Part shown: positions 741-32,328 of the stretch, piece after piece
How positions within the stretch are numbered: position 1 is the first letter of the stretch
Layout: each line of letters starts with the position of its first letter
Assembly (NCBI GenBank): GCA_963718895.1
Contig: CAVRAG010000008.1
Span: forward strand, 1,536,001 to 1,600,000
From: an uncultured Nitrososphaerota archaeon
GTDB taxonomy: Archaea; Thermoproteota; Nitrososphaeria; Nitrososphaerales; Gagatemarchaeaceae
Reading direction: 5' to 3'
Length of the DNA stretch: 64,000 nucleotides
Program-made: the position numbers and the translations under genes
Notes under the pieces: generated by a model
The model's input: the letters and a program-made list of their open reading frames with translations, nothing else
Database searches by the model: none
Told to the model about the DNA's origin: nothing

Positions 741-776
741 GTAGGGTTCGTTGCGCCTTCGGAGATTCTCATCCGC
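741..776 (-). repeat. 23S-trailer/BHB repeat copy 1 (degenerate)
   Basis: gtagggttcgttgcgccttcgg...tcatcc versus native gtagggttcattgcgcctccg...tcatcc at 31970-32006. Confidence 0.75.
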
Positions 777-827
777 GCCTTGGTTTGGCTTAAATCGAGT
801 CATAGCGATGGCTGAGCGACGATCCGC

Positions 828-1271
828 TTGAAAGACGCGGACAGAGATAGGATTCTGTTAGTCTTGGTCATTGTGAGCTTTGCCACCCTCGTACTCAGCC
901 AGATAGTCGAGGCGCTCACCTCGTCCACCATCGTCGTATCGTTGTGGTTCTTCGCGTTCGCGCTCTTCTTCACTAGCATTGGACTCTTGACTCTGAACCC
1001 AAGGCATCGAAGAATCAGGCTCACTTGGGGAATCGCTACTGTTCCCCGCGTTCTGATGCTCGCCGGACCCGTCCTGGTTGATCTCAGTTGCGTGCCCTTC
1101 TTGTTGAATTTCTCTTTAGGATCAGCGTTCTCGCTCACAGCTCTTGTGTTGTTAACGATAGGAGGCGTTCTTTCGACCGTAGATGCTCTTGTGTTGGTCT
1201 TGGCTTGGCGCATGTTGAAGGATGTCGATTTGGAGCTTCAAGCGCAAGCTGAGGCTTCGCCGCTGGGATAG
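828..1271 (+). CDS. Small multi-pass membrane protein
   Basis: 147 aa with about 4 hydrophobic segments, lying between repeat copies 1 and 2. Confidence 0.55.
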   Translation: MKDADRDRILLVLVIVSFATLVLSQIVEALTSSTIVVSLWFFAFALFFTSIGLLTLNPRHRRIRLTWGIATVPRVLMLAGPVLVDLSCVPFLLNFSLGSAFSLTALVLLTIGGVLSTVDALVLVLAWRMLKDVDLELQAQAEASPLG

Positions 1272-1310
1272 ACCGCAGCCTCTAGCCGTTTCTAACTAAG
1301 GTGATGTTTC

Positions 1311-1344
1311 GCCATGTATAAGGTTCATTGCGCCTCCGCCGGGC
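1311..1344 (-). repeat. 23S-trailer/BHB repeat copy 2
   Basis: gccatgtataaggttcattgcgcctccgccgggc, directly abutting the stop codon at 1345. Confidence 0.95.
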
Positions 1345-2580
1345 TCACGACCCGACTTCGATGACCAGCCATACGGCCTGCTCGTAGTGGAACTGGCACC
1401 CGTGAGACGTCAGGAGCGCGGTCATGTTCACATTGCCCGGAAACTCCGTCACGCTGCACGGTTGGTTGACCACGATTGACGGGCCATACCCTATGTAGTA
1501 GCCGAACTGGTTGTAGCTCGGGTTCGTAAGGACGGACCAGTGACCGGGAGCGGATTGCTGCAGGAAGCTCGCGTACGCGAAGGGCGCATCGGTTCCTGGC
1601 CAGAAAGTGGTCTCCCCGATCTGAAGCGTGGAGCCCGGAAACGACCTGGAGTAGTCCTGCTGGAACCCGTAGTTGGAGACGTTGTAGTTGGCGACCTGCG
1701 TCTGGAACCTGACCTTGGCGAACGCGTCGAGGGTCGAGTTCTCCGAGAGTTTCGGGCCCGTCCTATTGGCGTTCACCTGCTGGATGAAGTAGCTCACCCA
1801 GCTCGGCGTCGCCGCCTTCGTCGGCCACACACCCTGGAACCATCGGTCGTAGAGGACACCCAAGTCGCCCAGGGCTCCGGTCACCTGTATCGAGTAATCG
1901 AACGTCTGGCCGGGGCTCAGCGTCTCGCTTATGGCTTGGAAGGAGGCGGTGCACTCGGCTCCGGGCGCCATGGAATCGGGGCAGGAGACGCTGGAAAGGC
2001 TGCCCCCAAAGCTCGGGTTGGCAATCCAGTTCACGCCCTTGTAGGTCTGGTTGTCTCCGTTCCCGGGGACCTGGAAGGTCAGGTCGGCGAGGCTGAGGGC
2101 CTTCGAGCCTATGTTCTCGACAGTCGCCGTGAAGTTGACGATGCCGAGAGGCCCGCGGGCGAACGAGACGTTGCTCACGGCGACTACGCCTGAGGGGTCG
2201 ACCTCGACTGAGGGATAGGGCAGGTACTCCGCTCCCGTGACGTCCGTGCCCTTCAGGAAGAACACGTCTGTGCCGTGGCCTCCCGAAGTGCTCCAGTTTC
2301 CTTCCGCCATGCTGTAGGAACCAGCAAACGGCGGACCGCCCACGCTGAAGAGAGCATACGAGAGAGAGGCGCGTCCCGTCAGTGTTGTGGGGTCCGGGTA
2401 GAACTGCGATAGATCATCGCATGTAGCCTGGGGCTGGGAAGGAATGCAGTGCGACTGCAGCAGATTGACGGCTAGCGGGTACAGCGGGATGCTGTAGGTG
2501 AGTATCGGAGCGACCATCAGGACGATCAGAAGCACGCCGGCTAGGGCCGGAATCGCCCCGGTTTTGGTGCTCCTCCTCAA
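1345..2580 (-). CDS. Secreted protein with a C-terminal CAP/SCP-like domain
   Basis: N-terminal TM/signal, Ig-like middle, and a C-terminus (FIQQVNANR...LDAFAKVR...SAPGHWSVLTNPSYNQFGYYIG) that follows the CAP-domain pattern. Confidence 0.7.
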   Translation of the reverse strand: MRRSTKTGAIPALAGVLLIVLMVAPILTYSIPLYPLAVNLLQSHCIPSQPQATCDDLSQFYPDPTTLTGRASLSYALFSVGGPPFAGSYSMAEGNWSTSGGHGTDVFFLKGTDVTGAEYLPYPSVEVDPSGVVAVSNVSFARGPLGIVNFTATVENIGSKALSLADLTFQVPGNGDNQTYKGVNWIANPSFGGSLSSVSCPDSMAPGAECTASFQAISETLSPGQTFDYSIQVTGALGDLGVLYDRWFQGVWPTKAATPSWVSYFIQQVNANRTGPKLSENSTLDAFAKVRFQTQVANYNVSNYGFQQDYSRSFPGSTLQIGETTFWPGTDAPFAYASFLQQSAPGHWSVLTNPSYNQFGYYIGYGPSIVVNQPCSVTEFPGNVNMTALLTSHGCQFHYEQAVWLVIEVGS

Positions 2581-2701
2581 AGTGGGGGTTGGGCCTCGGT
2601 CGTTTTATTTCAGTCTTCAGAGAAGTTCTGAAGCCCAGAAGGCCGGGGCTGGTCGCCCGGTACCAGAGCCGGGGGAGGTTAATGTACGGGCGATTGAATG
2701 C

Positions 2702-2776
2702 AAGCTCCAGCCGATTGTTGATCTGGGATGCCGTAAAGAAAGGCATGCCATGCATAAGGGTTCATTGCGCCTCCGC
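2702..2776 (-). repeat. 23S-trailer/BHB repeat copy 3 (long distal arm)
   Basis: aagctccagccgattgttgatctgggatgccgtaaagaaaggcatgccatgcataagggttcattgcgcctccgc aligns over about 75 nt with native 31917-31991. Confidence 0.95.
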
Positions 2777-2865
2777 TGCATCGACTCGCCGGATATGCGA
2801 GTGGTACCATACTTTAAACACATCAGTGGTACCATATTAGATAAACCACACGCATAATAATCACT

Positions 2866-4388: not shown

Positions 4389-4540
4389 CTTCCTAGTTCC
4401 CAGCCTGTCCAGACCGGAGATAAGCGTGTTGCTAATACAGGTTGCTAGAACCGCGTCGCCCTCTTGACTAAGGAGACGGCTGAAACTAATCCGCCAAGAA
4501 TAGGCTTGGTGCCAAGTTGTCTATCCCGCTAAGCCTGATG

Positions 4541-4562
4541 TAAGGGTTCATTGCGCCTCTGC
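4541..4562 (-). repeat. 23S-trailer/BHB repeat copy 4
   Basis: taagggttcattgcgcctctgc, 21 nt from the stop of 4584..4850. Confidence 0.9.
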
Positions 4563-4583
4563 AGAATATCGATAGGTTGGCGA

Positions 4584-4850
4584 TCATGGAATACCGTGTG
4601 AGACGACTACAGTTGATGCTGCCGCCACATGCGCGAAGACGATGATCGCGAGCAAGACGAGGACCATGCAGATGGCGATCGCGTTACCATGGCTTGGGTT
4701 GCGCCTCGCCAGTATGAAGGACAGACCTGCCAGCAGGAGAAGCCCGACGTAAATCAGCTCCCAGGGGAAGACCAATGGAATTGCGGCAAACACGACGAGG
4801 AAGCCGGACCCGACCGTCAGCACGTCGCCGGCGACGTTAAGCGAATTCAT
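4584..4850 (-). CDS. Small 3-TM membrane protein
   Basis: 88 aa, almost entirely hydrophobic helices. Confidence 0.55.
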   Translation of the reverse strand: MNSLNVAGDVLTVGSGFLVVFAAIPLVFPWELIYVGLLLLAGLSFILARRNPSHGNAIAICMVLVLLAIIVFAHVAAASTVVVSHGIP

Positions 4851-5304
4851 GCCGGTAATCCTTGACCATCCGCAGGAGGTAACCGAAGGCGAATACGACG
4901 GCGATTGGGACCAGGTTCAGCACGGCCCAGTTCGGCGGCGCATGCGTGGTCGACAGGTTGGCCACACCTATCAGGAAGACGTAGCCATAGGCCACGAACT
5001 CCACGGCGAGTCCTTGAAGCCAGTCCCGTCGAACATGTTTCTGCCCACGCCGTAGGCCCGCATGGCCTGAGAGGTGTGGCCCTGCCGATCCAGACAGATT
5101 GCCGTGAGGGAGGCTATGTTAGCATAGTTCTGTTCTGACAGGTTCCCGGTGCCGTTGTTCAGGGTCACCTTGATTTGGACTCTGGCTCCCCATGAGTTTG
5201 TCCTACTATCTCTTATGTCTACCTTGTATATCCTCAAAATTCGAAGGTGACGACATTAATCAAGAGAATTTCTTCTTGAGCTTCTAGGGCAAAACAAAAA
5301 AGCA

Positions 5305-8300
5305 TCAGTCGCCCTTCGCCCATCGCCTATACGCACGAAGTTCCATGAACGCGGCAAGCCCGCAAAGGACGAGTACCATGACAGCAAGAATCGTCGAACT
5401 CATCGAAGCATAGGCCGTACCTCGAAGTGCCACCGTGGTCAGACTATCGAATAGGTTGACCACTGCGGCGAAAACATTCGGGGACGAACGCATCCAAACC
5501 ACCGAGTTCGATTCTCCTCTGAATTGCACCCCTTGAAGGGTGTAGGTAATTTCCGCGGGCTGGGAGACATATTCGCCGTAGCCATTCAATGTGACCTCGT
5601 AGGAGTAATGGACCGATTGTCCCGGTAGAAGCGTGAATTCGGAATTGTTGTCGGGATTGCCCGAGACCAGCGCTGCCCCGCTCTTGTACGATGTGAGGAA
5701 TGCCGCATCGTTCATTGAACTCACAGATATTTGAGACGAGTCGAGATTTTTGACCACGACTTTCACCACCACGTCGCCGTTGCTAGACTGAATGAAGGAC
5801 TTCGATAGTTGCAGCTCAGCCGGGTAGATACCCGTGAACGTCACCTGGAGAGTTGAAGGAGAGAGCGTCTTCCCTGCAGGCACCTGACTGAAGCCGACCA
5901 CGTCTCCCGGCAGTAGAGCGAATTGTCCCTCGGAGGTCGTGCTCGTGACAACGGTGAGTCTATCGTTGGGTATGACGTCGTCGTTCGCAGAAGGAGTAGA
6001 TGAAGAACCGTTGAGTGGCGCCCCGACTCCAAGCTCCGAGAAATATGCGCCACTCGCGAACGTTAGGGAACCGTCGTAACCGAGCAGCTGTTCGAGGTTG
6101 ACGGTGTGCACGTCCGAGGACGAGTGAACGACGCCCATCTTCACGGTCAGTGCACCCGCGAACGCGAACACGCCGGAAGCAGTCGCGATCTGGTTCTGGT
6201 TAAGCCCGAATAGATCCGATACGAAAGTGCCGAAGAATGTGTCGTTAGCGTAACCAGCGACCAGCATTGTGGCGTTCACGCGCCCAGCATTCGCCCCAGG
6301 AATCAGGACGCCAGAGTCAAGCCCGTTCTCGAGAGACTCGATCAGTCCCGAGCGGTGTATTAGCGGAAGCACGTTGTCCGCTATGGCCGGTCCCACAGTA
6401 TTGAGAGGGGCGTCTGATTGGTAGACACGTAGACAGACTTGATTCGAGGAGCTCGTAGTGTCGGGGAACATCGGAACTGCGGCGAGCAACGCGAGGTCTG
6501 AGAGACCAAGGGATGATGTGACCGATGTCACCACCGGGCCCGCGTCAGCTTGAGACTGAGGGCAAGAGCCTGAGTCTCCCATGAACAAAAGAGTGGGAGG
6601 GATGAGATTCGCATACCGCGATACGATGTTAGCGTCGACTGATGGTAACAGTGTCAGTCCACCGCTTTCGCTGAATACGACCAGAAAATCGACGCCGGAC
6701 GCCTGGGAGGACCCGAAGAGCGCAGGAGACTGCATCGATGCGGAGTTGTTAAGGAAGAGGTAGAGATTGGTCGCACTCCCGTCGGAATCGACCTCACCTA
6801 GGACTGCCTCAAGATACCCAGCAGGGAGAGTTATGGCCAGATAGGTGAACGTTATCGACCCACTCACCGGGATCTCGACGGTTCCGATCTCCACAGCCAC
6901 GGTTACCGAGCCCGTTCCCTGCGGGGTTAGTGCGGTCATGCTCGTCGAAGAGGTGACCGTGACCTCATCCGAGGCGGTGCTGCCGAACCACACGCTCATT
7001 GGGCTTGTAAAGCCGCTTCCGGTGAATGTGACCAAGGTCCCTCCCGACTCGGGACCTGAGACTGGCGAGACGCTCGTGACCGAATCGTACGTGAACTGGT
7101 ACCCTGGAGTGAATAGGTCCCCTAGAGTGGTACTACTGGTCCCGGCCGGCGTTGTAACCGTTACGTCGACGGTTCCAGAACCGTCGGGCGTCGAGAGGGT
7201 TATTTCGGCACCGCTTGCGGTGAGACCGGAAGCCGGATTGTCTTGGCCGAAGTTTACCGCTGTCGCTCCACTTAGGTCTGTGCCGTAGATGGTCGCGCTA
7301 GTCCCGCCATAACCGGTTCCCGAATCAGGGCTGATGCAAGAAACAGATGGCTGACCAGGAGGAGCTGGCACGAACCCCACACCCAGGGAAGGGGCCGATG
7401 AGCTGTAGCTTATCATTCCCGAGTTCACTCCTGAACAAGCCCAGCTGAGACCGGAGGACCCTTCTTCGGGCTGATTGGCGTAGGTGAGAGATTGATCGAT
7501 TGAATCAGACCACGACCGTTCTACCAGCTTTACGGAGGCTGTCTCAGACATTGCCGAACCTTGACCGAATGCCGTGTCTCCACTCGGACCACCGCTGACT
7601 GTCGGAGGTCCGACGAAGTCGAGTTCCGGATAGCCCGCAGGACCGAGATACATGTAGGAGCCGGGCGGGACTTCCAAACAGCTGGTGAGACAGGCGAGAG
7701 TTCCCGGATACGTGTACGTGTTTAGAGACTGGCTTCCAACCTTTGTAATCAAGGTCATGCCTCCATCTTGAATAACGGATGTCACGTTGAACGTGGCGGG
7801 AAGAGAGACCTGAGTGAAGGAATACGAGAAGTTACAGTCGGACGAAAGCATGCTTATCCCACCGCTGCAGGCAAGGAGCTCGTTGGAAGTAAATATCGAG
7901 TATAGGCTACCGGCCCAGTAATCCCCCTTACTGTCAACTCCGAGAATGAGGACGTTTTGGACCCAATCTGAGGGAACCGGGCCGATGTTATCGTGAGGCA
8001 CCACATAGAAGTTCTGCTGGACCGTGAAGCATGAACTGAGACTCACGACGAGCAGCTCTGATGGACAGGCAGTCGAGTTGGAGATGTTGATGCCCGACAC
8101 GGTAATCGTGTTCTCGACTCCCACGACCTGGTCTGATGGATATGCGGCGCTCTGTCCCGGGCACGTTGGTGCCGTGCCACCAACGTTTAAAGAATCGTCC
8201 AACAGATAGCAGTAACTGGACAGGGTCCAACTGTAAGACGCGGAGGCTTGAGAACCACAGTGCACTCCGATTAGAGATTCCAAAGGACCTGCGATGGGGC

Positions 8301-10068
8301 AGAATTCTGAGCCCAGATCTATCTGGTCTACATAATAACCGTCTACTGTCGACGAAGACCAAGAATCGGCGTAGTTCGAGGACAAGACTTGTGAGACTTC
8401 GTCGAACATCTGCTCTAGGTCGACGCCGACTGTTCCGGAACTCACAGGATCATGAAGGACAATGTAAACAGAGGTATGGCAGGTGTCTGGCTGGTTGACA
8501 CAATCATTGTTCAAATCGCCATTGTTCACATAAACGCTCCAGGCCCTTTCCTCAACTATGCCATCGACCACGGTAGGAATGTTTGCAGACTTGATGAAAG
8601 CACCATTTCCGTATTCCGCCTTCAAAGTTTGATTGTCAAGCCATATCATGAGTTCGATCGAGCTCTGCGTGAAAGCCAGATTCGAAGCGGATTCATCACA
8701 ATCTGCAGGAGTGGCCCAGATGTCATATGCGAAATCATACGGAGTGCGTGCAATAGCCGATTGGCTCTGTTCGACCGAATAACTGCTCATGGAGACAACC
8801 TCAGGGAAATTGCCTATTGTAGCAGGCGTCGAGCCGCTGCACGGGAGCTGGAGGCTCGGGCTCTGATTCTGGACGCCTAAACCGTAGCTAACATTGGGGT
8901 ACCCGATGACACCATTTCCATTTTTCAACGTGGCTTGAGTAAAGCTAACATCGGTGGTCAGTTGTCCGCTCTCATTCAGGCCCATTGTGACTCCTTCGTT
9001 AGCGCATGAGCCAGATTGCGAACATGAGTCTTCAAGATTGAATAGATTGGCCGTATAGAGCAGGTCACCAGCCTCGTAAACCGAACTCATGCCTTCCGGG
9101 GTCTGTTGGTTGTCAACATTGAATGTCAGGGAACAGGGAAGAACGTTGCACGGTGCAGGCGAATCGGCAGGGGCAGGGATCAGAGTTATTGCGTTCGACG
9201 ATGATGAAGTATCATCCACGCTGTCTTCCGTCTCCATAGCTCCAGAAGAAGTAGGGAGTGTTCCTCGAAGGTCGGACGTGTCGAGTCCGAACGAGGGTTT
9301 CGATGCACCGTCTACCGCTTGAGGCGACGAGGGAACGGGGATGTGAGGCCCGAAGGGGACGGTGGCAATCGGCGAAATGAAGACGATCAAAATGAGCACT
9401 TTCAGGACATTCCGGCCAAGCTTGCGTCCGGTTGAGCCGCCCTTGAAGAATCCTCCTGACCTTGATGGCCTTATGGTCTCAAGGAACTTCTGGGCGCCCA
9501 GGCCCGCCACCAAGGCAGCAATCAGAAAAATAACGAAGTTCTCGACACCAGCAAGGAGATAGGAGGAACCCCCCGAAATCGCCGCTCCTCCTGGATTCGC
9601 TTCAGAAGTCAAAGAGACTAGTAAGGATGGGAAGGTCTTCAGGAGAGGCTCATTCAGGAGAGTTGCACCATTGACACCGGGAGGGGGAGGGGGGAACGAG
9701 AAGGAAGAAAGGCTGGGCGAACTGTCGAATGCGCTCGTGGGGGCCAGTCGCGATATTGTCAGCAGTCCCGTCAAGACGAACAGGACGAAGGTCAGACAGT
9801 AGACCATGGCAGCCGCTCCAAATGACCCACGCCATCTTCTTACGAGAAGTCCGACGACGATCCCGATTACAGCCCACGTGATGGCTACCGTGATGTAGAC
9901 CGCGGGCGCTCCGAAGAGCAACAGGGCAAGCCCTAGGCAGAAGCTGAGCGAGGGACCCGAATTGGGTCCGAGCCAATTTATGATTGAACCGAAGCTTGGT
10001 GATAGGAAGGCGTATGCGGCGACCAGCGTGCACAGTGTACCGACAAGAACAGCAGTCAGCCTGGCCAT
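5305..10068 (-). CDS. Large membrane-anchored surface protein: TM bundle, GH12-like domain, thermopsin-like domain, 2 IPT/TIG domains, C-terminal TM
   Basis: GYPNVSYG, DFAYDIW, IELMIWL and LGSEF match GH12. TVQQNF...WVQNV...ELDFVGP is thermopsin-like. ISPDSG..GGT...I.G and VSPVSGPESGGTLVTFTGSGF match IPT/TIG. Confidence 0.8.
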   Translation of the reverse strand: MARLTAVLVGTLCTLVAAYAFLSPSFGSIINWLGPNSGPSLSFCLGLALLLFGAPAVYITVAITWAVIGIVVGLLVRRWRGSFGAAAMVYCLTFVLFVLTGLLTISRLAPTSAFDSSPSLSSFSFPPPPPGVNGATLLNEPLLKTFPSLLVSLTSEANPGGAAISGGSSYLLAGVENFVIFLIAALVAGLGAQKFLETIRPSRSGGFFKGGSTGRKLGRNVLKVLILIVFISPIATVPFGPHIPVPSSPQAVDGASKPSFGLDTSDLRGTLPTSSGAMETEDSVDDTSSSSNAITLIPAPADSPAPCNVLPCSLTFNVDNQQTPEGMSSVYEAGDLLYTANLFNLEDSCSQSGSCANEGVTMGLNESGQLTTDVSFTQATLKNGNGVIGYPNVSYGLGVQNQSPSLQLPCSGSTPATIGNFPEVVSMSSYSVEQSQSAIARTPYDFAYDIWATPADCDESASNLAFTQSSIELMIWLDNQTLKAEYGNGAFIKSANIPTVVDGIVEERAWSVYVNNGDLNNDCVNQPDTCHTSVYIVLHDPVSSGTVGVDLEQMFDEVSQVLSSNYADSWSSSTVDGYYVDQIDLGSEFCPIAGPLESLIGVHCGSQASASYSWTLSSYCYLLDDSLNVGGTAPTCPGQSAAYPSDQVVGVENTITVSGINISNSTACPSELLVVSLSSCFTVQQNFYVVPHDNIGPVPSDWVQNVLILGVDSKGDYWAGSLYSIFTSNELLACSGGISMLSSDCNFSYSFTQVSLPATFNVTSVIQDGGMTLITKVGSQSLNTYTYPGTLACLTSCLEVPPGSYMYLGPAGYPELDFVGPPTVSGGPSGDTAFGQGSAMSETASVKLVERSWSDSIDQSLTYANQPEEGSSGLSWACSGVNSGMISYSSSAPSLGVGFVPAPPGQPSVSCISPDSGTGYGGTSATIYGTDLSGATAVNFGQDNPASGLTASGAEITLSTPDGSGTVDVTVTTPAGTSSTTLGDLFTPGYQFTYDSVTSVSPVSGPESGGTLVTFTGSGFTSPMSVWFGSTASDEVTVTSSTSMTALTPQGTGSVTVAVEIGTVEIPVSGSITFTYLAITLPAGYLEAVLGEVDSDGSATNLYLFLNNSASMQSPALFGSSQASGVDFLVVFSESGGLTLLPSVDANIVSRYANLIPPTLLFMGDSGSCPQSQADAGPVVTSVTSSLGLSDLALLAAVPMFPDTTSSSNQVCLRVYQSDAPLNTVGPAIADNVLPLIHRSGLIESLENGLDSGVLIPGANAGRVNATMLVAGYANDTFFGTFVSDLFGLNQNQIATASGVFAFAGALTVKMGVVHSSSDVHTVNLEQLLGYDGSLTFASGAYFSELGVGAPLNGSSSTPSANDDVIPNDRLTVVTSTTSEGQFALLPGDVVGFSQVPAGKTLSPSTLQVTFTGIYPAELQLSKSFIQSSNGDVVVKVVVKNLDSSQISVSSMNDAAFLTSYKSGAALVSGNPDNNSEFTLLPGQSVHYSYEVTLNGYGEYVSQPAEITYTLQGVQFRGESNSVVWMRSSPNVFAAVVNLFDSLTTVALRGTAYASMSSTILAVMVLVLCGLAAFMELRAYRRWAKGD

Positions 10069-22742: not shown

Positions 22743-22752
22743 TTTGCACCCT

Positions 22753-24474: not shown

Positions 24475-25128
24475 TCATCGTCCAAACGCCCACGCCACCA
24501 TGAGCGGTAACTCTTCTCGCCAGAATGCGTCGCCGTGCGATCCGACCCGCTCGATCATGACGACGTCTGCACCCGCATCGCGCAGCGCGGTCGCCCACCG
24601 CCTCGCGTTCTCGAGGAAGAACGGCTCCAGGGTGCCGGCGACGAGATACGCGCGCTGCACCGATCGCGGCATAGCTTCAGGAGGGCGGTAACCCCCGCCT
24701 GGCGAGGCGCAGAAGATCGCACCGTAGATGTCCGGATGGCGAAGCCCAATGGCGAGCGCGAGCTCTCCACTCGCCGAGACACCGAACACCGCGGTGCGCT
24801 CGGCGGGCAGCGCCACTTCGAAACGCGACCTCGCCCATCGGCGGAGGTCCTCGACAAAGAACTTCTCGTGCGCCGCGAACCGCACCGGGTCAAACGCCGG
24901 TGAGTACTCATGGAGCCGCAGCGTCTCATCGTCCAGCCGGTGTGCACCGACGATCATCGTGGGCGGTACGTCGGCCGCCTCGAGGGCTCCTCCCCATTGC
25001 GCGATCAACTGGCCGTCACCGGCGAACACGACCGCCTCGGGCGGATCAGGTGGGACATACACCGTGACCTGACGACCACCATCGTACTCGAACGTCTCGG
25101 TGACGAGCTCTCCCTTGATGGACGACAT
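24475..25128 (-). CDS. Putative esterase (alpha/beta hydrolase, Fes/esterase family)
   Basis: RQVTVYVPP, nucleophile elbow GVSASG, C-terminal GSHGDAFW; markedly GC-rich. Confidence 0.85.
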   Translation of the reverse strand: MSSIKGELVTETFEYDGGRQVTVYVPPDPPEAVVFAGDGQLIAQWGGALEAADVPPTMIVGAHRLDDETLRLHEYSPAFDPVRFAAHEKFFVEDLRRWARSRFEVALPAERTAVFGVSASGELALAIGLRHPDIYGAIFCASPGGGYRPPEAMPRSVQRAYLVAGTLEPFFLENARRWATALRDAGADVVMIERVGSHGDAFWREELPLMVAWAFGR

Positions 25129-25166
25129 CGTCGCTGGTGAGATTGCCTGTGATATTGGTATTCTCG

Positions 25167-25198
25167 ATTGCGCCTCCGCCTCGGCATTTCATCCACAC
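25167..25198 (-). repeat. 23S-trailer/BHB repeat copy 8
   Basis: attgcgcctccgcctcggcatttcatccacac, 20 nt from the stop at 25219. Confidence 0.95.
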
Positions 25199-25218
25199 AT
25201 AGCACTGGACCTGAATCT

Positions 25219-25611
25219 TCAACCCTTGAGGACGTTCTCGTCAACTTTCACGAGCAACCAAGAGTAGAGGTTGGTTCGAAGCTTCCTGTTCCTCGGGTTT
25301 CCACATACTACAAAATCTTCACCCTGCTTCAAGTGGATGTGTATCCGAGGACTGGGTAGGTAAGGAGTCAGGCCTTCTTGCAGCGACATGGTACCTATAT
25401 CTGAGTAGTTGACATCTCGACGAAGACTTCTTCCGACGAGTTGGAATAGATTTTCGTAGAATCTGGCCGCTCGAACGGGTTGAATCCAGTTTCGAATGAC
25501 TCCAGGGACGCAGAGTGCTGAGCCAAAAAGGAGCCCGATCGACCCAGCGAATGCGGCAGGAGAGTAGAACAACAGGCGAACCCCAAAGTACAGGCTAGCA
25601 ACTGTGAGCAC
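25219..25611 (-). CDS. Small membrane protein (2 TMs plus a soluble C-terminus)
   Basis: 130-aa ORF, the only gene between repeat copies 8 and 9. Confidence 0.55.
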   Translation of the reverse strand: MLTVASLYFGVRLLFYSPAAFAGSIGLLFGSALCVPGVIRNWIQPVRAARFYENLFQLVGRSLRRDVNYSDIGTMSLQEGLTPYLPSPRIHIHLKQGEDFVVCGNPRNRKLRTNLYSWLLVKVDENVLKG

Positions 25612-25807: not shown

Positions 25808-25919
25808 TCTAGGCTTCCTTTGATCTTAGGATGCCGTAAAATGGGCAAGTGCCATGTATAGGGTTCATTGCGCCTCCGCCGGGGCATTTCATCCACACGT
25901 TGGGCTATAGTAAGTCGAC
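25808..25919 (-). repeat. 23S-trailer/BHB repeat copy 9 (most complete copy)
   Basis: gccatgtatagggttcattgcgcctccgccggggcatttcatccacacgttgggctatag...agtcgac is nearly identical to native 31963-32031, plus a partial distal arm. Confidence 0.97.
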
Positions 25920-26005: not shown

Positions 26006-27200
26006 TCAGTTTCGAGCGGCGACCCTGGGTACCATCACGAACCCCGTGCCCGCCTCGGGCACGTCAGGGTTTACGTATCTCCTGAAGATCGCAATGTACT
26101 CGGGAAGTCGCAGCGCAATAGGGTCGCCGCAGCGCGTCGTTCTCGCCGGGAAACGGGTCCCCGCCCAGGGCCTTCTTCACGACATCGTAGCTGTCGAGGT
26201 TGGTGAGCCGGTGGGCTATCACGGTCCCGCAGTTGTCCCAGACGTACCTGGAGAGCAAGGTCGGCATCTGGTCGACGATGATGAACCCCCAGCCGTATCT
26301 TCTGGCCTCAGCTATCGCGAGCTCGAGCAAGGTCCTGTCTCCCCTCTGCTGCGGGGGCCTCTCCTCGCTGAGATACCTGTGGGCCTCCTCGACCACGATC
26401 AGCCGCGTGAGCTGCTCAGGGGGCAACTCCCGGTTGAAGGCCCGGGTCTTGTCGTGCTGCCAGAGCTGCGCCAGCATCATCTCGGCCAAGAACCGCTGGT
26501 CCCTCAGCGAATCGACCTGCCCTATCTCGTAGACTGTGACCCTCTCTTCCATCCCCGCGAAGTCAAGGGCCAGCTCCGAGTTGAGCGAGGACCCGACCGC
26601 GCCCATGTTTATGATGTGCAGCCTCGACTCGAGAGCGCGCTGGCTGTTCTGCTCCTTGCTGCTTCCCGCCCTGAACTGCGCTACGGCGCCCTCGAGCTCG
26701 CGGAGGGTGGGGCTCGTCCTCAACTCTCCCCGGAGCGAGCAGAGGCAGTCCAGCAAGATGCGCCTCGATGGCTCGGACAACCCGTACGCCCTCGTGAAGA
26801 CGTCTGTGAAGGCCCTGTCCCACGGGTCGGCCATAGAACCCGGGGGAGGGATCAGCGGATTGAACCTGATGGTGGGCTCGTCCCCCACCGCGAGGATCTG
26901 GACGTCCTCGTCCAGCAGGCCCTTCAGCTCCCTGTACTCGCGCTTCACGTCCACGATGAGGCAGGCCTTCTTCCGGTTCCTCAGCGACTGCTCTATCGCG
27001 TGGAAGGTGTGGTTCGTCTTGCCGGAGCCCGTGGCTCCCACGATGAGCGCGTGCCTCAGCAGGAGCCGGTCGGTGAAACCGAAGCGGGTGTGCCTGGCCT
27101 CGCCGAGCACGGCGAAGATCTTCTTGTGTCCGGAGTTCCGGCTCCTGACCCGCGACTTCATCAGGTCCTCGAAACCCGGTTCAGATGGGTCATCGAACAT
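26006..27200 (-). CDS. HerA/DUF87-like P-loop ATPase with a frameshift near the C-terminus
   Basis: RHALIVGATGSGKT, LIVDVKREY, IVVEEAHRY and EARRYG..IIVDQ.P motifs. The true C-terminus appears to continue in a shifted frame to a stop at 26006. Confidence 0.85.
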
Positions 27201-28355: not shown

Positions 28356-29657
28356 ATGTACGAAGAAGATCTGCATCCATATGAAGTACCCAAACCGGGA
28401 ATTGGTACCTCATCTGACGAACGAAGGCCGCCTGGCTCTGGACCCGTCGCTTTCTTTGTCCGCAGTAGCCAGCATGGTTCCCGCACCAATGAGAGAGAAG
28501 AAGATGTACCAAGGCTTGTTGGAGGCAATAGGCCGTTTCCCCGTCTCGGAAGTCTGCCTACGAGCACCCCATATATCACGTGCCTGCGGGCTGCGAAATA
28601 CTTCGATGGCCTCGCCCTGATTGTGCCGAAGAGAGCGCTGCCAGAGCACTCCAAGAGCGACATACTCGAGATTAAGGTCGCCAGATGCGCCGAACCCGAG
28701 AAGGAGCTGTCGCTGTACGGGAGACATCAACCAGGATACAAGTGCGCGAGGCTCGATCTGAACCAGATTGAGGTAGCTTACGGCGAAGAGTTCTGGGTTA
28801 GATCGGTAGGGAAGTATCTGCCTCAGAAGTTAGCATCTGAGTACAACCTCATGAAACCGATAGGCCTAGAGAATACAGAGCTGATTCTGGACGGAAGGCC
28901 TTGCCTGAGAGTGGACGGGACTGAGGTCAGACTGGCGGTGAAGAGGTTCAGGACCTTCGAGAGCAAGGCGATATTGGACGTGGAATTTGGTAGTGGTGGA
29001 CTGATTAGGGTGATAAGAGGGTTGGAGGGTTTCAACGTAAAGACCAGGAATCACTCTCAGGTCTACTCCATGATGACAGATGGAAGGCAGGTACTGATTA
29101 CCTACAAGATGCCAGGCGAATCGATGCACACACGAGTAGTGGACTCGAGCACGGCTAGCTATAGCACAGTCAATTCAGTGCCGGAGATTGGTAGTCGCGC
29201 AGATCTACTTGCCATACCTGATTCGTTTGAAGGAAGATATGTCATAAGGTTGAATTCACGGTTCATGGTACACATGATAGCAAAGTTGGTTAGACATGGT
29301 GCGTGCAGATATGAGAAGGTGAGAGGGGACATCGGGGAAGAAATCATAGATTCCATCCTGTCACAGATTGGCGTCCCGCAACTGATAGGTCATCCCCTGG
29401 ATCCCGGGAGGGACTACGATTCAAGTCGTAAAGGACCAGATAGCTTGAGGAAGGTCCCGATTGTCCAGCTTGGCTACTTCGAATTCAAGTGGTGGAAGGA
29501 AGCCGAGAAAGCGTCCTACGAGGCACAAGTACAAGCCAGCAGGTTCCCGCGAGGGAAGAGATTCAGGGGGCAGAGAATCGGGGGCGCTTATATTGCAAAT
29601 CTCGATTGGGATATGTCAAGCCCAATGTGCTCGTTGACCGTATCGAGAGTGTGGTGA
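28356..29657 (+). CDS. Hypothetical protein with a C-terminal PD-(D/E)XK nuclease-like motif
   Basis: GDIGEEI...KGPDSL...GYFEFKWW pattern; start codon uncertain. Confidence 0.55.
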   Translation: MYEEDLHPYEVPKPGIGTSSDERRPPGSGPVAFFVRSSQHGSRTNEREEDVPRLVGGNRPFPRLGSLPTSTPYITCLRAAKYFDGLALIVPKRALPEHSKSDILEIKVARCAEPEKELSLYGRHQPGYKCARLDLNQIEVAYGEEFWVRSVGKYLPQKLASEYNLMKPIGLENTELILDGRPCLRVDGTEVRLAVKRFRTFESKAILDVEFGSGGLIRVIRGLEGFNVKTRNHSQVYSMMTDGRQVLITYKMPGESMHTRVVDSSTASYSTVNSVPEIGSRADLLAIPDSFEGRYVIRLNSRFMVHMIAKLVRHGACRYEKVRGDIGEEIIDSILSQIGVPQLIGHPLDPGRDYDSSRKGPDSLRKVPIVQLGYFEFKWWKEAEKASYEAQVQASRFPRGKRFRGQRIGGAYIANLDWDMSSPMCSLTVSRVW

Positions 29658-30302
29658 ATGTCGAGTCAAGCTGATGAGGCAGAAGCGGTTCGAGAAGTAG
29701 TGTCCGGACTCACCAACGCCGAATTTGAAATCATGGACATCAAGGACCAGCATCCGGATAGCAAGATATCTCCGATTTGGTTCATGAGTTGCCGCGAAAT
29801 CACTCAGGCGAACAAGATTCCCCACGTCCAAGCCATCTGGAGAGGGAAGGGAGAAATCCGAATAGAGTCTCTGACAATAGGCAACACTTCTGATTGGATT
29901 GAGGAGAGCGGAGGGGAGGAGGCCGTCTATCCCGTCCTGGAAATGGACCTGACGAACTTCTGGGACCCCGGGTTTCGCAAGAGGTTCCTGAGGGGGTTTC
30001 CTGACCTTAAGATAAGACTTGGATGGTGTGAGGCGATTCTTGCCGATGTCTCGAAGAAACGCGGTGTCAAGCTTGAAATCCGATTCGACGGAGGAAAGGG
30101 GCTTGCGGTATTCTACATTGACGCGAAGGTGAAGGCCACCCCGGAGAAGATTGGACTGGAAATCAAGCGCGTCGAGAACGCGTTGAAGGCGCTGAAGGAA
30201 GCTTACTCGGAGGTCGCGGGAGAGGTTCGCGACGCCGAAATGGAATCCAGAGAGTTCCGCAAATGGAAGCTAAGGGCCAGAGCGGAAGCATCAAAATCCT
30301 AG
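29658..30302 (+). CDS. Hypothetical protein
   Basis: 214 aa, starts immediately after the upstream stop. Confidence 0.65.
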   Translation: MSSQADEAEAVREVVSGLTNAEFEIMDIKDQHPDSKISPIWFMSCREITQANKIPHVQAIWRGKGEIRIESLTIGNTSDWIEESGGEEAVYPVLEMDLTNFWDPGFRKRFLRGFPDLKIRLGWCEAILADVSKKRGVKLEIRFDGGKGLAVFYIDAKVKATPEKIGLEIKRVENALKALKEAYSEVAGEVRDAEMESREFRKWKLRARAEASKS

Positions 30303-30310
30303 GACATATT

Positions 30311-30337
30311 GTGTATGGTGTTTATCGCACCTCCGCC
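30311..30337 (-). repeat. 23S-trailer/BHB repeat copy 10 (highly degenerate)
   Basis: gtgtatggtgtttatcgcacctccgcc versus gtgtagggttcattgcgcctccgcc. Confidence 0.65.
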
Positions 30338-30438
30338 CGAGATAAGGGCACCTACGCTGTGGAGCGTTGGATGATTCTAGATTTCCTCAATCGAGCATCG
30401 ATCCAACTGACTTGATTCAAGTGGGCTTGCACGGCTAC

Positions 30439-31218
30439 TCACTCCCGTAGCACGCCTTGACCACGCTCTGTTAGTTCATAGTGTTTCTTAAGCAGGCCTG
30501 TTTTCTTCAGATACCCCTTCCTTACCAAGGACTCGAAGTGGGACATGTAAGGATAAACCGGCTCCTTGCGAGTCCTCCCTACGATGGCGAGAGCATCGTA
30601 TTCGTTCTCGCTTAGGTCCGAGCGTAATTTCGGCCTAGTTCCATATTGCGGTTTGGAGACACTGTCCTTGTTTTCTGATTCCATGCTGGGCTTCAGTCGC
30701 TCGGGATGGAAGCGCCCATCGGACGAATCATAGGTACGCCTAATGGCGTCCTGCGCCTCACGAGGATATCTTTCCACTTCTCGGAGTGATATCCCTCTGT
30801 TAGGAGGTCTCTCAAAACGATACTCCTCCCGGCTTGACCTTGGTGACTTGCTTGGGGGCTTGGGTATCAAGTGGGTCTCTTTGATTTTGACGACTAGCGC
30901 TTTGAAGATTTCTTCTTCGTTTTCTTCAGAATGACCCTCCCACAGAAGTACGTTCAAGTGAGAAGCGAACGTTTCAGGCATAGTGATTGGATAACTTCCC
31001 AGTTTGAGTTTGACAGCTTCGCCAAGGATTTCGCCAAGATTGCTTGTTGGTACAGCGCACTTGGCTATTATCCAATAACCCTGACCGCTTCTGTCGAAGT
31101 AATCTCTCAGACCACCTGAGACAAAATCTCTTCCGAAAACTCTAGATTCGGTCTTCCGTTCCACCGAAATTCTTACTGTCAAACCGTTGAGAGATTGAGA
31201 TTCGGATGTTACTGGCAT
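30439..31218 (-). CDS. Hypothetical protein with a C-terminal wHTH-like segment
   Basis: 259 aa; FESLVRKGYLKK...YELTERG. Confidence 0.6.
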   Translation of the reverse strand: MPVTSESQSLNGLTVRISVERKTESRVFGRDFVSGGLRDYFDRSGQGYWIIAKCAVPTSNLGEILGEAVKLKLGSYPITMPETFASHLNVLLWEGHSEENEEEIFKALVVKIKETHLIPKPPSKSPRSSREEYRFERPPNRGISLREVERYPREAQDAIRRTYDSSDGRFHPERLKPSMESENKDSVSKPQYGTRPKLRSDLSENEYDALAIVGRTRKEPVYPYMSHFESLVRKGYLKKTGLLKKHYELTERGQGVLRE

Positions 31219-31814
31219 TTGCTAAATCCCAAAATTCTACCGTATGTCAGCCGTGGTTTCGCGCTTTCGTAGGTTAGAATCTCCTGAATGAGTTTCAGTT
31301 CGTGACATAATATAGAACGCAGGGCCATTATAGACCCGAGGGCTGTATAATCGTGCAAGTTATGAATGCTTCCTTGGCAGTGACCAGAACTTCGACTTAA
31401 GTAAGAAAGACCATGTCTATGCATAGGTTCATTGCGCCTATGCTGGCGGCATTTCCCATCAGGAGGCAATCTTCTGACAAATGATTCCAAAGCCATTAGA
31501 CAGACGCGATATTTCACTTGATGGCCACGGTTCTCTCTTTCGTGCCGTTGAGCGGGTTCCACTGACTCGAATGATGCTTGGCACGTATAGCAAATGTAAT
31601 GGGCCATGTAACCTGCTCTCTTTACCAACCTACTAGGAGGTAGCGAATTCGACTCGTAGAGGCCGCTTGGGCTGTTCATGATCTCCTTCGAAACACAGGT
31701 GTGTCGCTCCGGCAGCCTATGTTCCCCGCAGAGTGCTTTCCCACAATACTTGCACTTGAAAGGGAATGCTTCCTCGGCTCCACATTGCTGACATGAAGTC
31801 ATGTAATCAGCCAT
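31209..31814 (-). CDS. AN1-type zinc finger protein with an additional C2H2-like finger
   Basis: CQQC..PFKCKYCGKALCGEHRLPERHTC (AN1) and CYTC...H...H. The 3' part reads through repeat copy 11 and is probably spurious. Confidence 0.7.
   Translation of the reverse strand: MADYMTSCQQCGAEEAFPFKCKYCGKALCGEHRLPERHTCVSKEIMNSPSGLYESNSLPPSRLVKRAGYMAHYICYTCQASFESVEPAQRHERENRGHQVKYRVCLMALESFVRRLPPDGKCRQHRRNEPMHRHGLSYLSRSSGHCQGSIHNLHDYTALGSIMALRSILCHELKLIQEILTYESAKPRLTYGRILGFSKCQ
31401..31455 (-). repeat. 23S-trailer/BHB repeat copy 11
   Basis: gtaagaaagaccatgtctatgcataggttcattgcgcctatgctggcggcatttc versus native 31949-32002. Confidence 0.9.
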
Positions 31815-31960
31815 AGCATATGACGGCGGCTAGTACATATCGATGTCCTGACAGCTCTTTCCCCTCCACATGAGTCGCACAATCGAGTTACCGTAAGCGC
31901 TCATTGGAAGGTTCAGAAGCTCTAGCCCTTTGTCATTCTCGAGATACCGTAAGAAAAGGC

Positions 31961-32010
31961 ATGCCATGTGTAGGGTTCATTGCGCCTCCGCCGGGGCATT
32001 TCATCCACAC
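31961..32010 (-). other. 3' strand of the 23S pre-rRNA processing stem with BHB (native copy of the repeat)
   Basis: Pairs with 35993-36047: GGGUUC/GAACCC, AAU bulge, GCGC/GCGC 4-bp helix, AAG bulge, UCCGCCGGGG/CCCCGGCGGA. Confidence 0.92.
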
Positions 32011-32328
32011 GTTGGGCTATAGGTAGTCGACGGGCTGAACACGTCGCCCGAGGGCTTCGTGCGTACACCCCCACTCCTTCAACGCGAGTCTTCTATCGCC
32101 GCCCTTCTCAGCGTGCCTCTTCGGCCTTGCGGCCGGAAAGGTGTAGCTGATAGAAGACTCTTCTTGGGAGTGGCTTCCTGCTTAGATGCTTTCAGCAGTT
32201 ATCCACAATAGCTTAGCTGCCCAGCTATGCCCTTTCGGACAACTGGTACGCCAGAGGCTACGCGCCGCTGTTCCTCTCGTACTGGGCAGCGCTTCCTCGC
32301 AGTTTCTTCCGCTTCCATCAGGTAGAGG

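Follow-up and report, generated by a model that had tools for sequence, protein, structure and literature searches.

The question raised by the locus described here is whether the genes lying downstream of an archaeal rRNA operon have been gathered there by a gene-capture process, and by which one. The window, that is, the whole 64,000-nucleotide stretch of DNA that was analysed, carries on its minus strand the sole rRNA operon of a soil thaumarchaeon (genome G000, a bin of 80.5% completeness and 5.4% contamination). An earlier note on this DNA had described at least 11 copies of the sequence following the 23S rRNA gene, all in one orientation, and had read them as a serial, integron-like gene-capture array. 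The repeat itself is confirmed, and the array is larger than first stated (Table 1). When positions 31850-32100 were used as a BLAST query against their own window, copies were recovered at 738/741, 1311, 2702, 4543, 23318, 24388, 25167, 25830 and 31401, all oriented as the native site, as had been claimed. The whole-genome nhmmer scan (E<0.01) gave nine matches in the window, namely eight copies and the native site. A core 15-mer with at most two mismatches was found eight times, always on the plus strand and within 1-32 kb, against an expectation of 0.17 in 100 shuffles, none of which reached eight. With regard to the 11 copies, eight are strong by nhmmer and the one at 31401 is moderate (78.6% identity over 56 nt by BLAST), whereas those at 22711 and 30311 are weak and not significant. 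Stop codons abutting the repeat, listed earlier for six ORFs, were verified at the ORF ends 1345, 4584, 23349, 24475 and 25219, and the composition shifts noticed at the boundaries agree with a unit GC of 45%-65% against a genome mean of 59.7%.

Table 1. Features of the window, with their strand and the evidence on which each is based.
Feature	Position	Strand	Basis and remarks
Degenerate copy	738..783	+	core 751-759, 1 mismatch; BLAST, nhmmer
Copy	1311..1343	+	core 1328-1336; abuts stop of ORF 1345-2580; BLAST, nhmmer
Single-ORF cassette, 411 aa	1345..2580	-	paralogous cassettes at C8:1493850 and on contig C10
Copy, long left arm and core only	2702..2778	+	core 2765-2773; 81.6% identity over 76 nt; nhmmer
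Copy, left arm and core only	4538..4562	+	core 4551-4559; BLAST, nhmmer
Single 18.8-kb unit between two copies	4551..23324	.	ORF list, domain searches, nhmmer
Weak degenerate copy, alone not significant	22711..22745	+	by eye; no nhmmer match
Short copy	23313..23339	+	core 23324-23332; BLAST, nhmmer
Three single-ORF cassettes (327 aa; 217-aa esterase-like; 130 aa), copy after each	23349..25611	-	
Right-arm-only copy	24388..24457	+	core 24388-24396; 90% identity over 70 nt; nhmmer; reaches ~50 nt into 23S-like sequence
Right-arm-only copy	25167..25206	+	core 25168-25176; BLAST, nhmmer
Best-conserved copy	25808..25919	+	core 25868-25876; 90% identity over 91 nt; nhmmer 73.5 bits; long left arm, full right arm; distal boundary of first 6.1-kb unit
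HerA/FtsK-like ATPase in 23S-proximal unit	26064..27200	-	Pfam DUF87 7.1e-10; PADLOC HerA models
A1 family protein, candidate nuclease	28356..29657	+	E..PD..ExK pattern near C-terminus
214-aa partner ORF	29658..30302	+	homologues after A1 in L063 and L065
Weak degenerate copy, alone not significant	30310..30337	+	BLAST E=6.5; by eye
Degenerate copy inside first unit	31401..31455	+	core 31432-31440, 1 mismatch; BLAST, 15-mer scan
Predicted 23S processing stem, trailer strand	31958..32010	-	RNAcofold with leader, -70.1 kcal/mol, pair list
Native site	31963..32022	+	nhmmer HMM positions 1-60, 70.6 bits
23S rRNA gene	32000..36001	-	Rfam LSU_rRNA_archaea, 2325.8 bits, model positions 1-2987
Predicted 23S processing stem, leader strand	35993..36062	-	RNAcofold; reverse-strand BLAST match to 36011-36047
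16S rRNA gene, same operon	36203..37702	-	Rfam SSU_rRNA_archaea, 1447 bits

Only the last quarter of the array is displayed in the window, about 95 kb more lying to its left. The genome-wide model scan, which had been proposed earlier, yielded 85 matches, 68 of them in C8:1441758-1568022 and all of these on the plus strand. By motif scan the array comprises 76 sites, and it spans about 126-133 kb from the 23S 3' end on one side to a conserved core flank on the other. Rather than being scattered behind ordinary genes, 81 of the 85 matches fall into three clusters, and the four single ones lie elsewhere on contig C4 (two) and on the short contigs C6 and C10 (one each). The strand bias extends to core-like 9-mers, 93 of which occur on the plus strand of the array versus 16 on the minus strand, and at least 6 nt of arm accompany 76 of the former versus none of the 16 latter. 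Units have a median size of 1055 bp, 60 of 75 measuring up to 2 kb and 34 up to 1 kb. In CRISPR arrays, short repeats are regularly spaced by short non-coding spacers; such an array is ruled out by a copy spacing of 285 to 18,775 bp and by intervals that hold ORFs. The longest ORF lies on the rRNA strand in 38 of the 59 units of up to 2 kb, so that the orientation bias is only moderate, and many copies are situated 0-90 nt downstream of a stop codon.

The fixed anchor of the array is the 3' end of the 23S rRNA gene. In the native site, the left arm corresponds to the trailer, the 9-nt core to positions 31980-31988 and the right arm to the last ~22 nt of the 23S gene. In the 23S processing stem predicted by RNAcofold, positions 31979-31987 form an irregular stretch resembling a bulge-helix-bulge, and the core coincides with it. 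The description of the repeated site as a trailer can be made more specific, since what is repeated is the stem's predicted 3' strand, with the irregular stretch at its centre. Identity of the copies to the 23S 3' end and its trailer reaches 90-93%, and they form direct repeats that flank the units.

This organization recurs well beyond a single genome. The repeat has matches in 19 of the 22 genomes from the same genus and in the one sister-genus genome, but neither in the one genome of the family's third genus nor in the 16 other families searched, and in three genomes of other families their own 23S end and trailer were not repeated. The same architecture is present in 20 of the 40 other genomes searched and in at least 120 metagenome contigs, with a uniform site orientation in 42 of 43 multi-site contigs. 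The 23S 3' end lies at one array end in all seven genomes in which it could be placed (G007, G009, G010, G018, G021, G012 and G017), and the array is thus a genus-level feature. Its size varies from ~18 kb in G010 to 62 kb in the single-contig genome G007 (42 sites), at least 74 kb in G021 and the 126-133 kb of G000. Core synteny is collinear on the operon's right side and again beyond the far end of the array, and absent inside it.

A comparison of gene content across genomes, also proposed earlier, revealed shared blocks bounded inside the repeat and a shuffled order. Five blocks shared by G000 and G007 (665-883 nt) are 89.0-94.8% identical, compared with 78.6% over 12,148 nt for the flanking core DNA. 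In either genome, the blocks begin between offsets -3 and +11 of the repeat and end between +24 and +33. Two cassettes, A and B, are adjacent in the order A-B in G007, 46 kb from the 23S gene, and in the order B-A in G010, less than 2.3 kb from it, while in G000 they are found on separate contigs. Within-genome duplicate units in G000 are also bounded by the repeat. As far as can be read from sequence comparison, these patterns show units behaving as mobile cassettes that were moved singly between species and positions. The serial gene capture proposed for the 23S 3' flank is supported by this unit-wise interspecies exchange, by the breakpoints inside the repeat and by the anchoring in seven of seven genomes.

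The locus probably consists of cassettes that are each mobile on their own, together with a few larger integrated elements, arrayed one after another on the chromosome downstream of the rRNA operon. The recombination site at the unit boundaries would be ~25 bp long, at times reaching ~130 bp, and would copy the DNA of the 23S processing-stem 3' strand, its left half-site coming from the trailer, its 9-nt core being invariant and its right half-site reaching into the 23S 3' end. One such site would be carried per cassette circle, and a conservative exchange in the core between the circle's site and the native site or any copy would insert or excise the unit. After insertion, the cassette's left arm would serve as the working 23S trailer, and new units would enter mostly at the 23S-proximal end.

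The form of the copies bears on how the exchange takes place. All copies have the 9-nt core in common, with short half-sites on either side, and the junction alignments of cassettes share only a 16-nt stretch of the site. Among the 76 sites of G000, 46 have both arms, 21 only the left and nine only the right, the arms stopping at the core edges. Since some copies keep one arm only, a conservative, site-specific exchange within the core is suggested, and single-arm copies are what recombination between a full and a secondary site should produce. However, the right arm, a copy of the 23S 3' end, extends for 50-80 nt in some G000 copies and up to about 105-165 nt in other genomes, and an exchange restricted to the core does not account for these 50-165 nt of copied 23S sequence. 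Ordinary homologous recombination, in which the repeats would act as 25-130 bp of portable homology for circles or transformed DNA and no dedicated recombinase would be needed, could explain such arms, which vary in length on both sides and carry 80-165 nt of 23S in some copies. It would also agree with the many copies sharing at least 60 nt at 85-95% identity and with the lack of a consistently linked recombinase. On the other hand, homologous exchange is not expected to place breakpoints recurrently at the same nucleotides, and the 16 nt shared at the junctions of interspecies cassettes, the 30 of 76 single-armed sites ending at the core edge and the uniform orientation in the metagenome contigs all speak against it, so that we regard this alternative as unlikely, though not far-fetched. 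Site-specific exchange would thus be preferred over homologous exchange.

Under site-specific exchange, the candidates for the recombinase are tyrosine integrases of mobile elements acting in trans or a module encoded beside the 23S gene. The claim that no recombinase is visible within 1-32 kb was borne out, the 30 ORFs scanned there showing no match to tyrosine or serine recombinase families. As for a position left of the window, which the earlier note had offered as one possibility, the recombinase does not lie just beyond that edge; the array continues there for 95 kb to a far flank of metabolic genes, among whose nine scanned ORFs no recombinase was found. G000 has four PF00589 matches, all away from 1-32 kb, and no resolvase-family match; G007 has a small resolvase match and a single PF00589 match, the latter adjoining a tRNA-Leu gene; and G010 (77% complete) has neither. 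Homologues of the four integrases tried were absent from the 80 metagenome contigs examined (168 sites), and no recombinase was consistently linked to the array in the genomes and contigs searched. Site-adjacent integrases do occur at secondary loci outside the main array: an L011-type module, with proteins 95-97% identical, lies ~0.55-0.65 kb from a site in constant geometry in four species; a second lineage (L001 type) is site-adjacent in G000 and G015 (two of six loci), and a third (L013) in G001. Such modules also adjoin tRNA genes, as judged partly by reading the sequence, and their integrases may therefore be tRNA-specific. On any integrase tested, the integron-integrase model scored at best 40.3 bits against a cut-off of 265, and the sole Xer-like genes found adjoin tRNA genes and reach 96 bits versus the archaeal XerA cut-off of 220. 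Most plausibly, mobile elements would provide the enzyme in trans in the form of a tyrosine integrase.

Alternatively, the array could possess new machinery of its own, in which the A1 protein, its 214-aa partner and the HerA-like ATPase would form a platform enzyme beside the 23S gene, with a role like that of the integron integrase beside attI. A1 homologues are restricted to the genus (12 of 22 same-genus genomes plus G000, none of 18 other genomes searched), lie less than 6 kb from the 23S 3' end in G000, G007, G021, L063 and L065, and keep a constant orientation relative to the sites in the six loci where both strands could be read. The E..PD..ExK pattern, of catalytic type, is invariant in 15 sequences, A1 and the 214-aa ORF occur together in G000, L063 and L065, and the ATPase is present in G000, L063 and L120, that of metagenome contig L063 being 61% identical and placed in the equivalent unit. 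However, A1 was not found in the array-bearing genomes G010, G012 and G017, is encoded at a distance from the array in G009 and G018, and has no match in Pfam, PHROG, PADLOC or PDB sequences. Moreover, a HerA protein with a nuclease is a known defence-system layout, the ATPase matching the PADLOC HerA models, and conservative exchange is not known to be performed by nucleases of this motif class. This possibility is accordingly rather improbable.

It could also be argued that the repeat acts chiefly at the RNA level, as a terminator or a processing signal placed behind many genes, and that the mobility of the units would be incidental. The position of the core in the bulge-helix-bulge-like part of the predicted stem, the small hairpin and T-run retained in long left arms, and the location of many copies shortly past stop codons would fit this proposal. 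Nevertheless, the matches are clustered as described above, and the leader-like partner strand is not repeated, so that a bulge-helix-bulge cannot form at the copies. In addition, the Rfam scan showed no family other than the rRNAs in the window, and the core-bounded homology blocks and the interspecies exchange would be left unexplained, which makes a mainly RNA-level function very unlikely. An assembly or binning artefact, the former of which the earlier note had mentioned and which the incomplete, partly contaminated and repeat-rich bin might favour, has a practically negligible chance, considering that the same layout is found in single-contig G007, in the 20 of 40 other genomes and in the metagenome contigs.

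The array of mobile cassettes favoured here can be set beside known systems; no published description of an array of this kind was found. Integrons are recognized by a tyrosine integrase at the array head and by attC sites, whose imperfectly palindromic sequence folds into a hairpin in single-stranded form, and sedentary chromosomal integrons, such as the Vibrio superintegron, form long one-directional arrays of mostly single-gene cassettes. As in these and in archaeal integrons, the sites of the array all point one way and one is repeated at each boundary; the units would be mostly single-gene cassettes, with the moderate ORF orientation bias given above. The paper on archaeal integrons (Ghaly et al. 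2022, PMC9668308) mentions neither "rRNA" nor "Nitrososphaer". Further likenesses are sites more alike within a genome than across life, cassettes shared and reshuffled between species, and a cargo rich in toxin-antitoxin-type and small-enzyme genes. In contrast to integrons, one strand of an rRNA processing stem is what the site copies, an rRNA gene serves as the anchor, and neither an integron integrase nor attI adjoins the array. An attC-type folded site is also lacking: when both strands of the native site and of the best copy were folded as DNA, no such hairpin was obtained, with z-scores of +0.50 to +1.40, no better than shuffled sequence. Given the absence of both an attC-like hairpin and an array-linked integrase, the array is analogous to an integron without being one, and the term integron-like holds for the layout only. 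Genes are captured here in an integron-like manner, but at a different site and without integron parts.

Additive islands and tycheposons are the bacterial counterparts of tandem tRNA-gene element arrays. As in the tRNA-gene arrays of integrative elements, the 3' part of a stable-RNA gene would be duplicated at each integration, units are stacked at one locus, many of them are devoid of an integrase, and the gene end would be restored by the copy that the element brings. The two reviews on archaeal tyrosine-integrase elements (Badel et al. 2021, PMC8371274; Krupovic et al. 2019, PMC6563490) do not mention "rRNA". Unlike in those arrays, the target is the 23S processing stem, and there are 40-76 units, with a median of ~1 kb in G000. 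Xer-dependent modules include the dif modules of Acinetobacter plasmids and the IMEX elements, the dif site being 28 bp long with two inverted 11-bp arms and a 6-bp spacer. Small cargo and short bounding sites are shared with them, as a recombinase encoded elsewhere would be, whereas the 11-6-11 inverted-arm layout is lacking by inspection and all sites here point one way. Inverted-repeat symmetry, as is usual in the core sites of tyrosine recombinases, is missing from the consensus, also by inspection, which counts against the favoured reading, and in the best register against dif about 4 of 11 arm positions are inverted-symmetric, as read by eye rather than scored by a tool. The SCC elements of staphylococci use serine recombinases, target the rlmH 3' end and comprise few large units. 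Serial insertion at a conserved gene 3'-end site and composite arrays split by direct repeats are common to both, while the target here is an rRNA rather than a protein gene and G000 lacks a resolvase-family match.

As for the units themselves, their cargo resembles that of chromosomal integrons. Among the 30 cassette ORFs scanned, nine matched PIN-family domains and eight matched nothing, further ones matching the GNAT, methyltransferase, PNPOx and SDR families, and the proteins encoded in the 18.8-kb unit include one of 1587 aa with a TIG domain, one that is DO-GTPase-like and one of 782 aa with MG2-like repeats.

The sequence formed by the 3′ end of the 23S rRNA gene and its trailer (about 31917-32049), which the earlier note had claimed to recur through the window, was indeed found at the places claimed for it, in one orientation throughout. 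A chance origin does not explain these copies, as the window contains a core 15-mer (up to two mismatches) at 8 places, compared with an expected number of 0.17. When a profile built from 48 copies was run against the 3.13-Mb assembly of the genome under study (G000) at E<0.01, 85 matches were obtained, of which 68 lie within C8:1441758-1568022, every one on the plus strand, with neighbours mostly 0.6-1.5 kb apart. Therefore, the array reported earlier is real, but its extent had been underestimated, since only the last quarter of a run of about 126 kb had been seen. On the scale of the genome, as the earlier note had proposed to verify, 81 of the 85 matches fall in three clusters, and the 4 isolated ones are distributed between contig C4 (two), C6 and C10 (one each, both short contigs). 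Whereas the main array is strictly one-directional, the cluster on C4 has 6 sites on the plus strand and 3 on the minus strand, and it includes a cassette sharing 93% identity with a unit that the arrays of the related genomes G007 and G010 contain. The rRNA operon beside the main array, in the window (C8:1536001-1600000), is the only one detected in the assembly.

Features located in the window, in other contigs of the genome under study (G000) and in related loci (L, loci or contigs from metagenomes or numbered genomes)
Feature	Location	Strand	Remarks
23S rRNA gene	window 32000-36001	-	Rfam
16S rRNA gene	window 36203-37702	-	same operon as 23S
Single 18.8-kb unit between two copies	window 4551-23324		
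HerA-like ATPase	window 26064-27200		23S-proximal 6.1-kb unit
A1, 433-aa ORF	window 28356-29657		same 6.1-kb unit, with 214-aa ORF
A1/HerA module occurrences	window 26064-30302; L063:945-4850; L065:5795-7250; L007:14617-15747		
Secondary site cluster, 4 matches	C8:1189526-1222554		profile search
Secondary site cluster, 9 matches	C4:263558-300188	mixed	profile search
412-aa tyrosine integrase, C-terminal zinc ribbon	G000:C8:1338882-1340211 = L003:2882-4211; G007 L009:5269-6601; G021 L015		PF00589 match C8:1338888-1340117
Module of site, DnaJ-domain ORF, integrase and tRNA-like sequence	L011:10256-12345 (G012); L016 (G020); L012 (G017); L026		2.1-2.5 kb

All aligned copies have in common a 9-nt core, whose native position is 31980-31988, flanked by a left half-site of 7-9 nt, lengthened in some copies to about 85 nt of trailer-like sequence, and by a right half-site of 6-9 nt, which in many copies continues through the final 22-50 nt of the 23S gene and in a few for at least 80 nt. 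Core-like 9-mers (up to one mismatch) number 93 on the plus strand and 16 on the minus strand of the G000 array, and at least 6 nt of arm accompanies 76 of the former versus none of the latter. Both arms were observed at 46 of these 76 sites, only the left at 21 and only the right at 9, the arms ending at the core edges; the corresponding numbers in G007 are 27, 11 and 2. When the 23S leader (36062-35985) was co-folded with the 3′ end of the gene plus its trailer (32030-31950), a long duplex of -70.1 kcal/mol was predicted, pairing 36062-35993 with 31958-32010; this is the usual archaeal processing stem. The sole irregular stretch of this duplex, in which trailer positions 31979-31987 face leader positions 36029-36020, may represent a relaxed bulge-helix-bulge, with a 4-bp central helix and a bulge 3′ of it on both strands, and it is exactly on this stretch that the core falls. 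The left arm corresponds to the leader-pairing segment of the predicted stem and, therefore, a cassette entering the native site would supply a new 23S trailer.

The finding is real and genus-wide. A 91-nt query spanning the site yielded multiple matches in 19 of 22 genomes of the same genus and in the single genome of a sister genus, with no match in the third genus of the family nor in 16 other families of the order. In all seven genomes in which it could be placed (G007, G009, G010, G018, G021, G012 and G017; the assemblies of G020 and G022 were left out as too fragmented), the match cluster is bordered on one side by the true 23S 3′ end. G007, assembled as a single contig, has 42 sites in 62 kb, in one orientation only, the corresponding figures being 53 in 74 kb for G021 and 14 in about 18 kb for G010. 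In three complete or near-complete control genomes of other families, their own 23S end and trailer were not repeated. An exact 19-nt site pattern was present in at least 120 metagenome contigs, and the 80 examined carry 168 sites, with a single orientation in 42 of the 43 multi-site contigs; according to the sequence records, the related loci belong to uncultured Thaumarchaeota/Nitrososphaerota from soil and peat-type samples. A search of viral contigs with a 21-nt site pattern returned no matches.

That the units are mobile was shown by comparing genomes at the repeat boundaries, as the earlier note had suggested; the units common to G000 and G007 proved to be bounded inside repeats, and two cassettes are rearranged among G000, G007 and G010. 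G000 and G007 are collinear on the right side of the operon, where their proteins share 60-90% identity and their DNA 78.6% over 12,148 nt; synteny is likewise seen at the far flank of the array, in G010 as well as in these two genomes. Between these conserved flanks, G000 and G007 show no synteny, yet individual units are shared. Five such blocks of 665-883 nt are 89.0-94.8% identical, starting at repeat offsets -3 to +11 and stopping at +24 to +33 of the next repeat in both genomes; since they are far more similar than the core DNA, their exchange postdates the species split. At the junctions, the neighbouring sequence differs and the shared part of the site comprises only 16 nt. Two cassettes that stand in the order A-B, 46 kb from the 23S gene, in G007 are found as B-A, less than 2.3 kb from it, in G010, and sit on separate contigs in G000. 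G000 also contains five internal duplicates of unit size (496-868 nt aligned, 79-97% identical), each beginning inside a repeat and four of them terminating in one as well. G021 and G000 retain a partly collinear unit backbone of 70-88% identity, which, together with the shuffling of single units, indicates that the array is vertically inherited while units are gained, lost and shuffled. The array may grow at its 23S-proximal end: the cassettes shared by G000 and G007 stand in nearly the same order at distances of at least 23.5 kb and 38 kb from the 23S gene, but two of them occur in G010 no more than 2.3 kb from it. Four public DNA runs cover 0.07-0.16 of a 3.4-kb stretch, no RNA run being listed, and their assembly, too thin to address circles, excision or expression, gave low-depth contigs of about 150-260 nt with no joints, whose loose ends at sites were mostly paralogous copies.

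The units of G000 have a median size of 1055 bp (34 of 75 up to 1 kb, 26 between 1 and 2 kb, and 15 larger), and their GC content ranges from 45% to 65%. On the left side of the window, 30 cassette ORFs were scanned, of which nine have PIN-family domains, those of VapC-type toxin-antitoxin partners, and eight have no family match, the others including a GNAT protein, two methyltransferases, two PNPOx proteins, an SDR, an FAD oxidoreductase, a RibD_C protein, a nucleotide cyclase and NHL-repeat proteins. Inside the window, where another 30 ORFs were scanned, the majority gave no match at all, those identified being a DUF488 protein, an esterase, a zf-AN1 protein, the HerA-like ATPase, a DO-GTPase-like protein and a 1587-aa TIG-domain protein. 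The last two belong to the 18.8-kb unit, together with a zinc-ribbon protein, a 782-aa protein with MG2-like repeats and two large ORFs without assignment; this unit resembles either a larger integrated element or an island of defence or surface-protein genes.

As a mechanism, these arrays are best explained by conservative exchange at the 9-nt core. Such exchange does not account for the internal 23S fragments without a core site that were observed in or near the arrays of three other genomes (G020:C101:11466-11623, G020:C7:11446-11567, G017:C7:536664-536742 and G018:C3:362896-363057).

Regarding the enzyme, tyrosine integrases acting in trans are plausible candidates. The earlier statement that no tyrosine or serine recombinase occurs in the first 32 kb of the window agrees with the lack of PF00589 and PF00239 matches there. 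Its suggestion of a recombinase to the left of the window found no support among the nine far-flank ORFs scanned, six of which belong to metabolic or transport families, one has only a zinc ribbon and two have no match. Serine recombinase matches were absent from G000, G009, G018 and G010, with one small match in G007. PF00589 has four matches in G000, all outside the first 32 kb of the window. The 412-aa integrase, 84% identical to the sole PF00589 match of G007, directly follows a tRNA-Leu with a varying anticodon (gag, cag, tag) in G000, G007 and G021, and is therefore most likely part of a tRNA-targeting element; in G000 a split AAA-type ATPase comes next to it, and in G007 the integrase lies at a synteny break. 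A relative about 50% identical to it, the integrase of the DnaJ-containing module, is found about 0.55-0.65 kb from a site with the same geometry in all four species, separated from it by the DnaJ-domain ORF (scanned in one of the four), with cassettes beyond the site and, on the other side, the tRNA-like sequence and then core genes. This integrase is 95-97% identical at the protein level across the four species, and the module DNA is 91-96% identical among G012, G020 and G017 compared with 81-85% for the adjoining core DNA, indicating recent interspecies transfer. Another G000 integrase (C8:1190965-1192347) is 1.4 kb from a site and adjoins an intron-containing tRNA; its family is present in 19 of the 22 same-genus genomes, not in G007 at E<=1e-10, and has a site within 1.5 kb at two of six loci. 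The 141-nt tRNA, L001:6303-6443 (C8:1192303-1192443), was found by Rfam and missed by ARAGORN, and sits between two divergently facing integrase genes, one with a degenerate low-complexity C-terminal half. No homologue of any of the four integrases tried was detected in the 80 metagenome contigs; statements of integrase absence are weak in general, because the Pfam model clearly overlooks divergent members.

Another candidate is the A1/HerA module, whose proteins are only 28-61% identical across lineages and which, in several of these, is situated close to the array's 23S end. A1 has 14 database homologues, none of them named, and no match in Pfam, PHROGs, PADLOC or PDB sequences (best PDB E=0.2); an E..PD..ExK pattern is invariant in its alignment and, judged from sequence, would be a nuclease motif. 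Among the genomes searched, its homologues are restricted to this genus (12 of 22 same-genus genomes, besides G000). A1 lies no more than 6 kb from the 23S 3′ end in G000, G007, G021 and the metagenome contigs L063 and L065, in constant orientation relative to the sites, and it co-occurs with the 214-aa ORF in G000, L063 and L065, and with the HerA-like ATPase in G000, L063 and L120. However, A1 was not found in G010, G012 and G017, although all three have arrays, and the ATPase matches defence-type HerA models; therefore, the module may serve in defence, or it may be a selfish element with a preference for the native site.

The position of the core on the bulge-helix-bulge-like part of the stem prompted consideration of an RNA-mediated route. 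RVT_1 matches are present in G000, in G007 (two, with equal scores) and in G010 (one), with none in G009 and G018. Those of G000 (C8:1204372-1205061 and C8:1208045-1208734) fall within open frames some 600 aa long, which may be group II introns, located 360 kb away inside a secondary island flanked by site copies at C8:1189526 and C8:1216195. Copying in the manner of a homing endonuclease was set aside, since it would leave the site unduplicated.

Integrons are the standard example of single-gene capture, storage and reshuffling, and are defined by one integrase family and folded attC sites. The integron-like character proposed in the earlier note holds for the layout and population behaviour of the array, which works similarly to an integron or a tRNA-anchored additive island. 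On the other hand, integron membership was rejected, since the integron integrase is absent and the site has no attC-like fold, DNA folding z-scores being +0.50 to +1.40 for the native site and the best copy on both strands. A Xer/dif reading was also rejected, the site being asymmetric and the one Xer-like gene kept in both G000 and G007 (84% identical), whose distribution in the genus is patchy and multi-copy (11 of 22 genomes), lying directly beside tRNA-Leu in these two genomes and in G021.

An rRNA processing stem is an unusual target. Full-text literature searches, whose coverage stops short of supplementary lists of integration sites, returned no rRNA-anchored cassette array, and as far as they show this array type, comprising 14 to 76 cassettes in this soil thaumarchaeal genus, was not previously described and would be the first case of an rRNA-gene processing stem used as a serial integration site. 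The need for insertions to keep rRNA maturation intact may explain why each cassette carries a trailer copy. If these arrays indeed behave like integrons while using another site and no integron components, cassette-array gene capture evolved more than once. In practice, up to about 4% of these genomes constitutes a fast-turnover accessory store, in arrays that standard integron finders would miss. A fuller version, which is regarded as rather improbable, would be a new archaeal gene-capture platform, parallel to integrons yet independent of them, in which the site would be a DNA image of the 23S bulge-helix-bulge, the rRNA operon would act as anchor and possibly as read-through promoter, and the enzyme, other than an integron integrase, could be A1 with the HerA-like ATPase or be coupled to rRNA processing. 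Due to its abundance in soil and peat metagenomes, the site could serve as a PCR or hybrid-capture handle for the cassette pool of this uncultured lineage.

The 23S gene of the window measures 4002 nt compared with 2987 positions in the Rfam model and thus contains insertions totalling about 1 kb, either introns or expansion segments, and its alignment between G000 and G007 is split into pieces of 93%, 84% and 83% identity.
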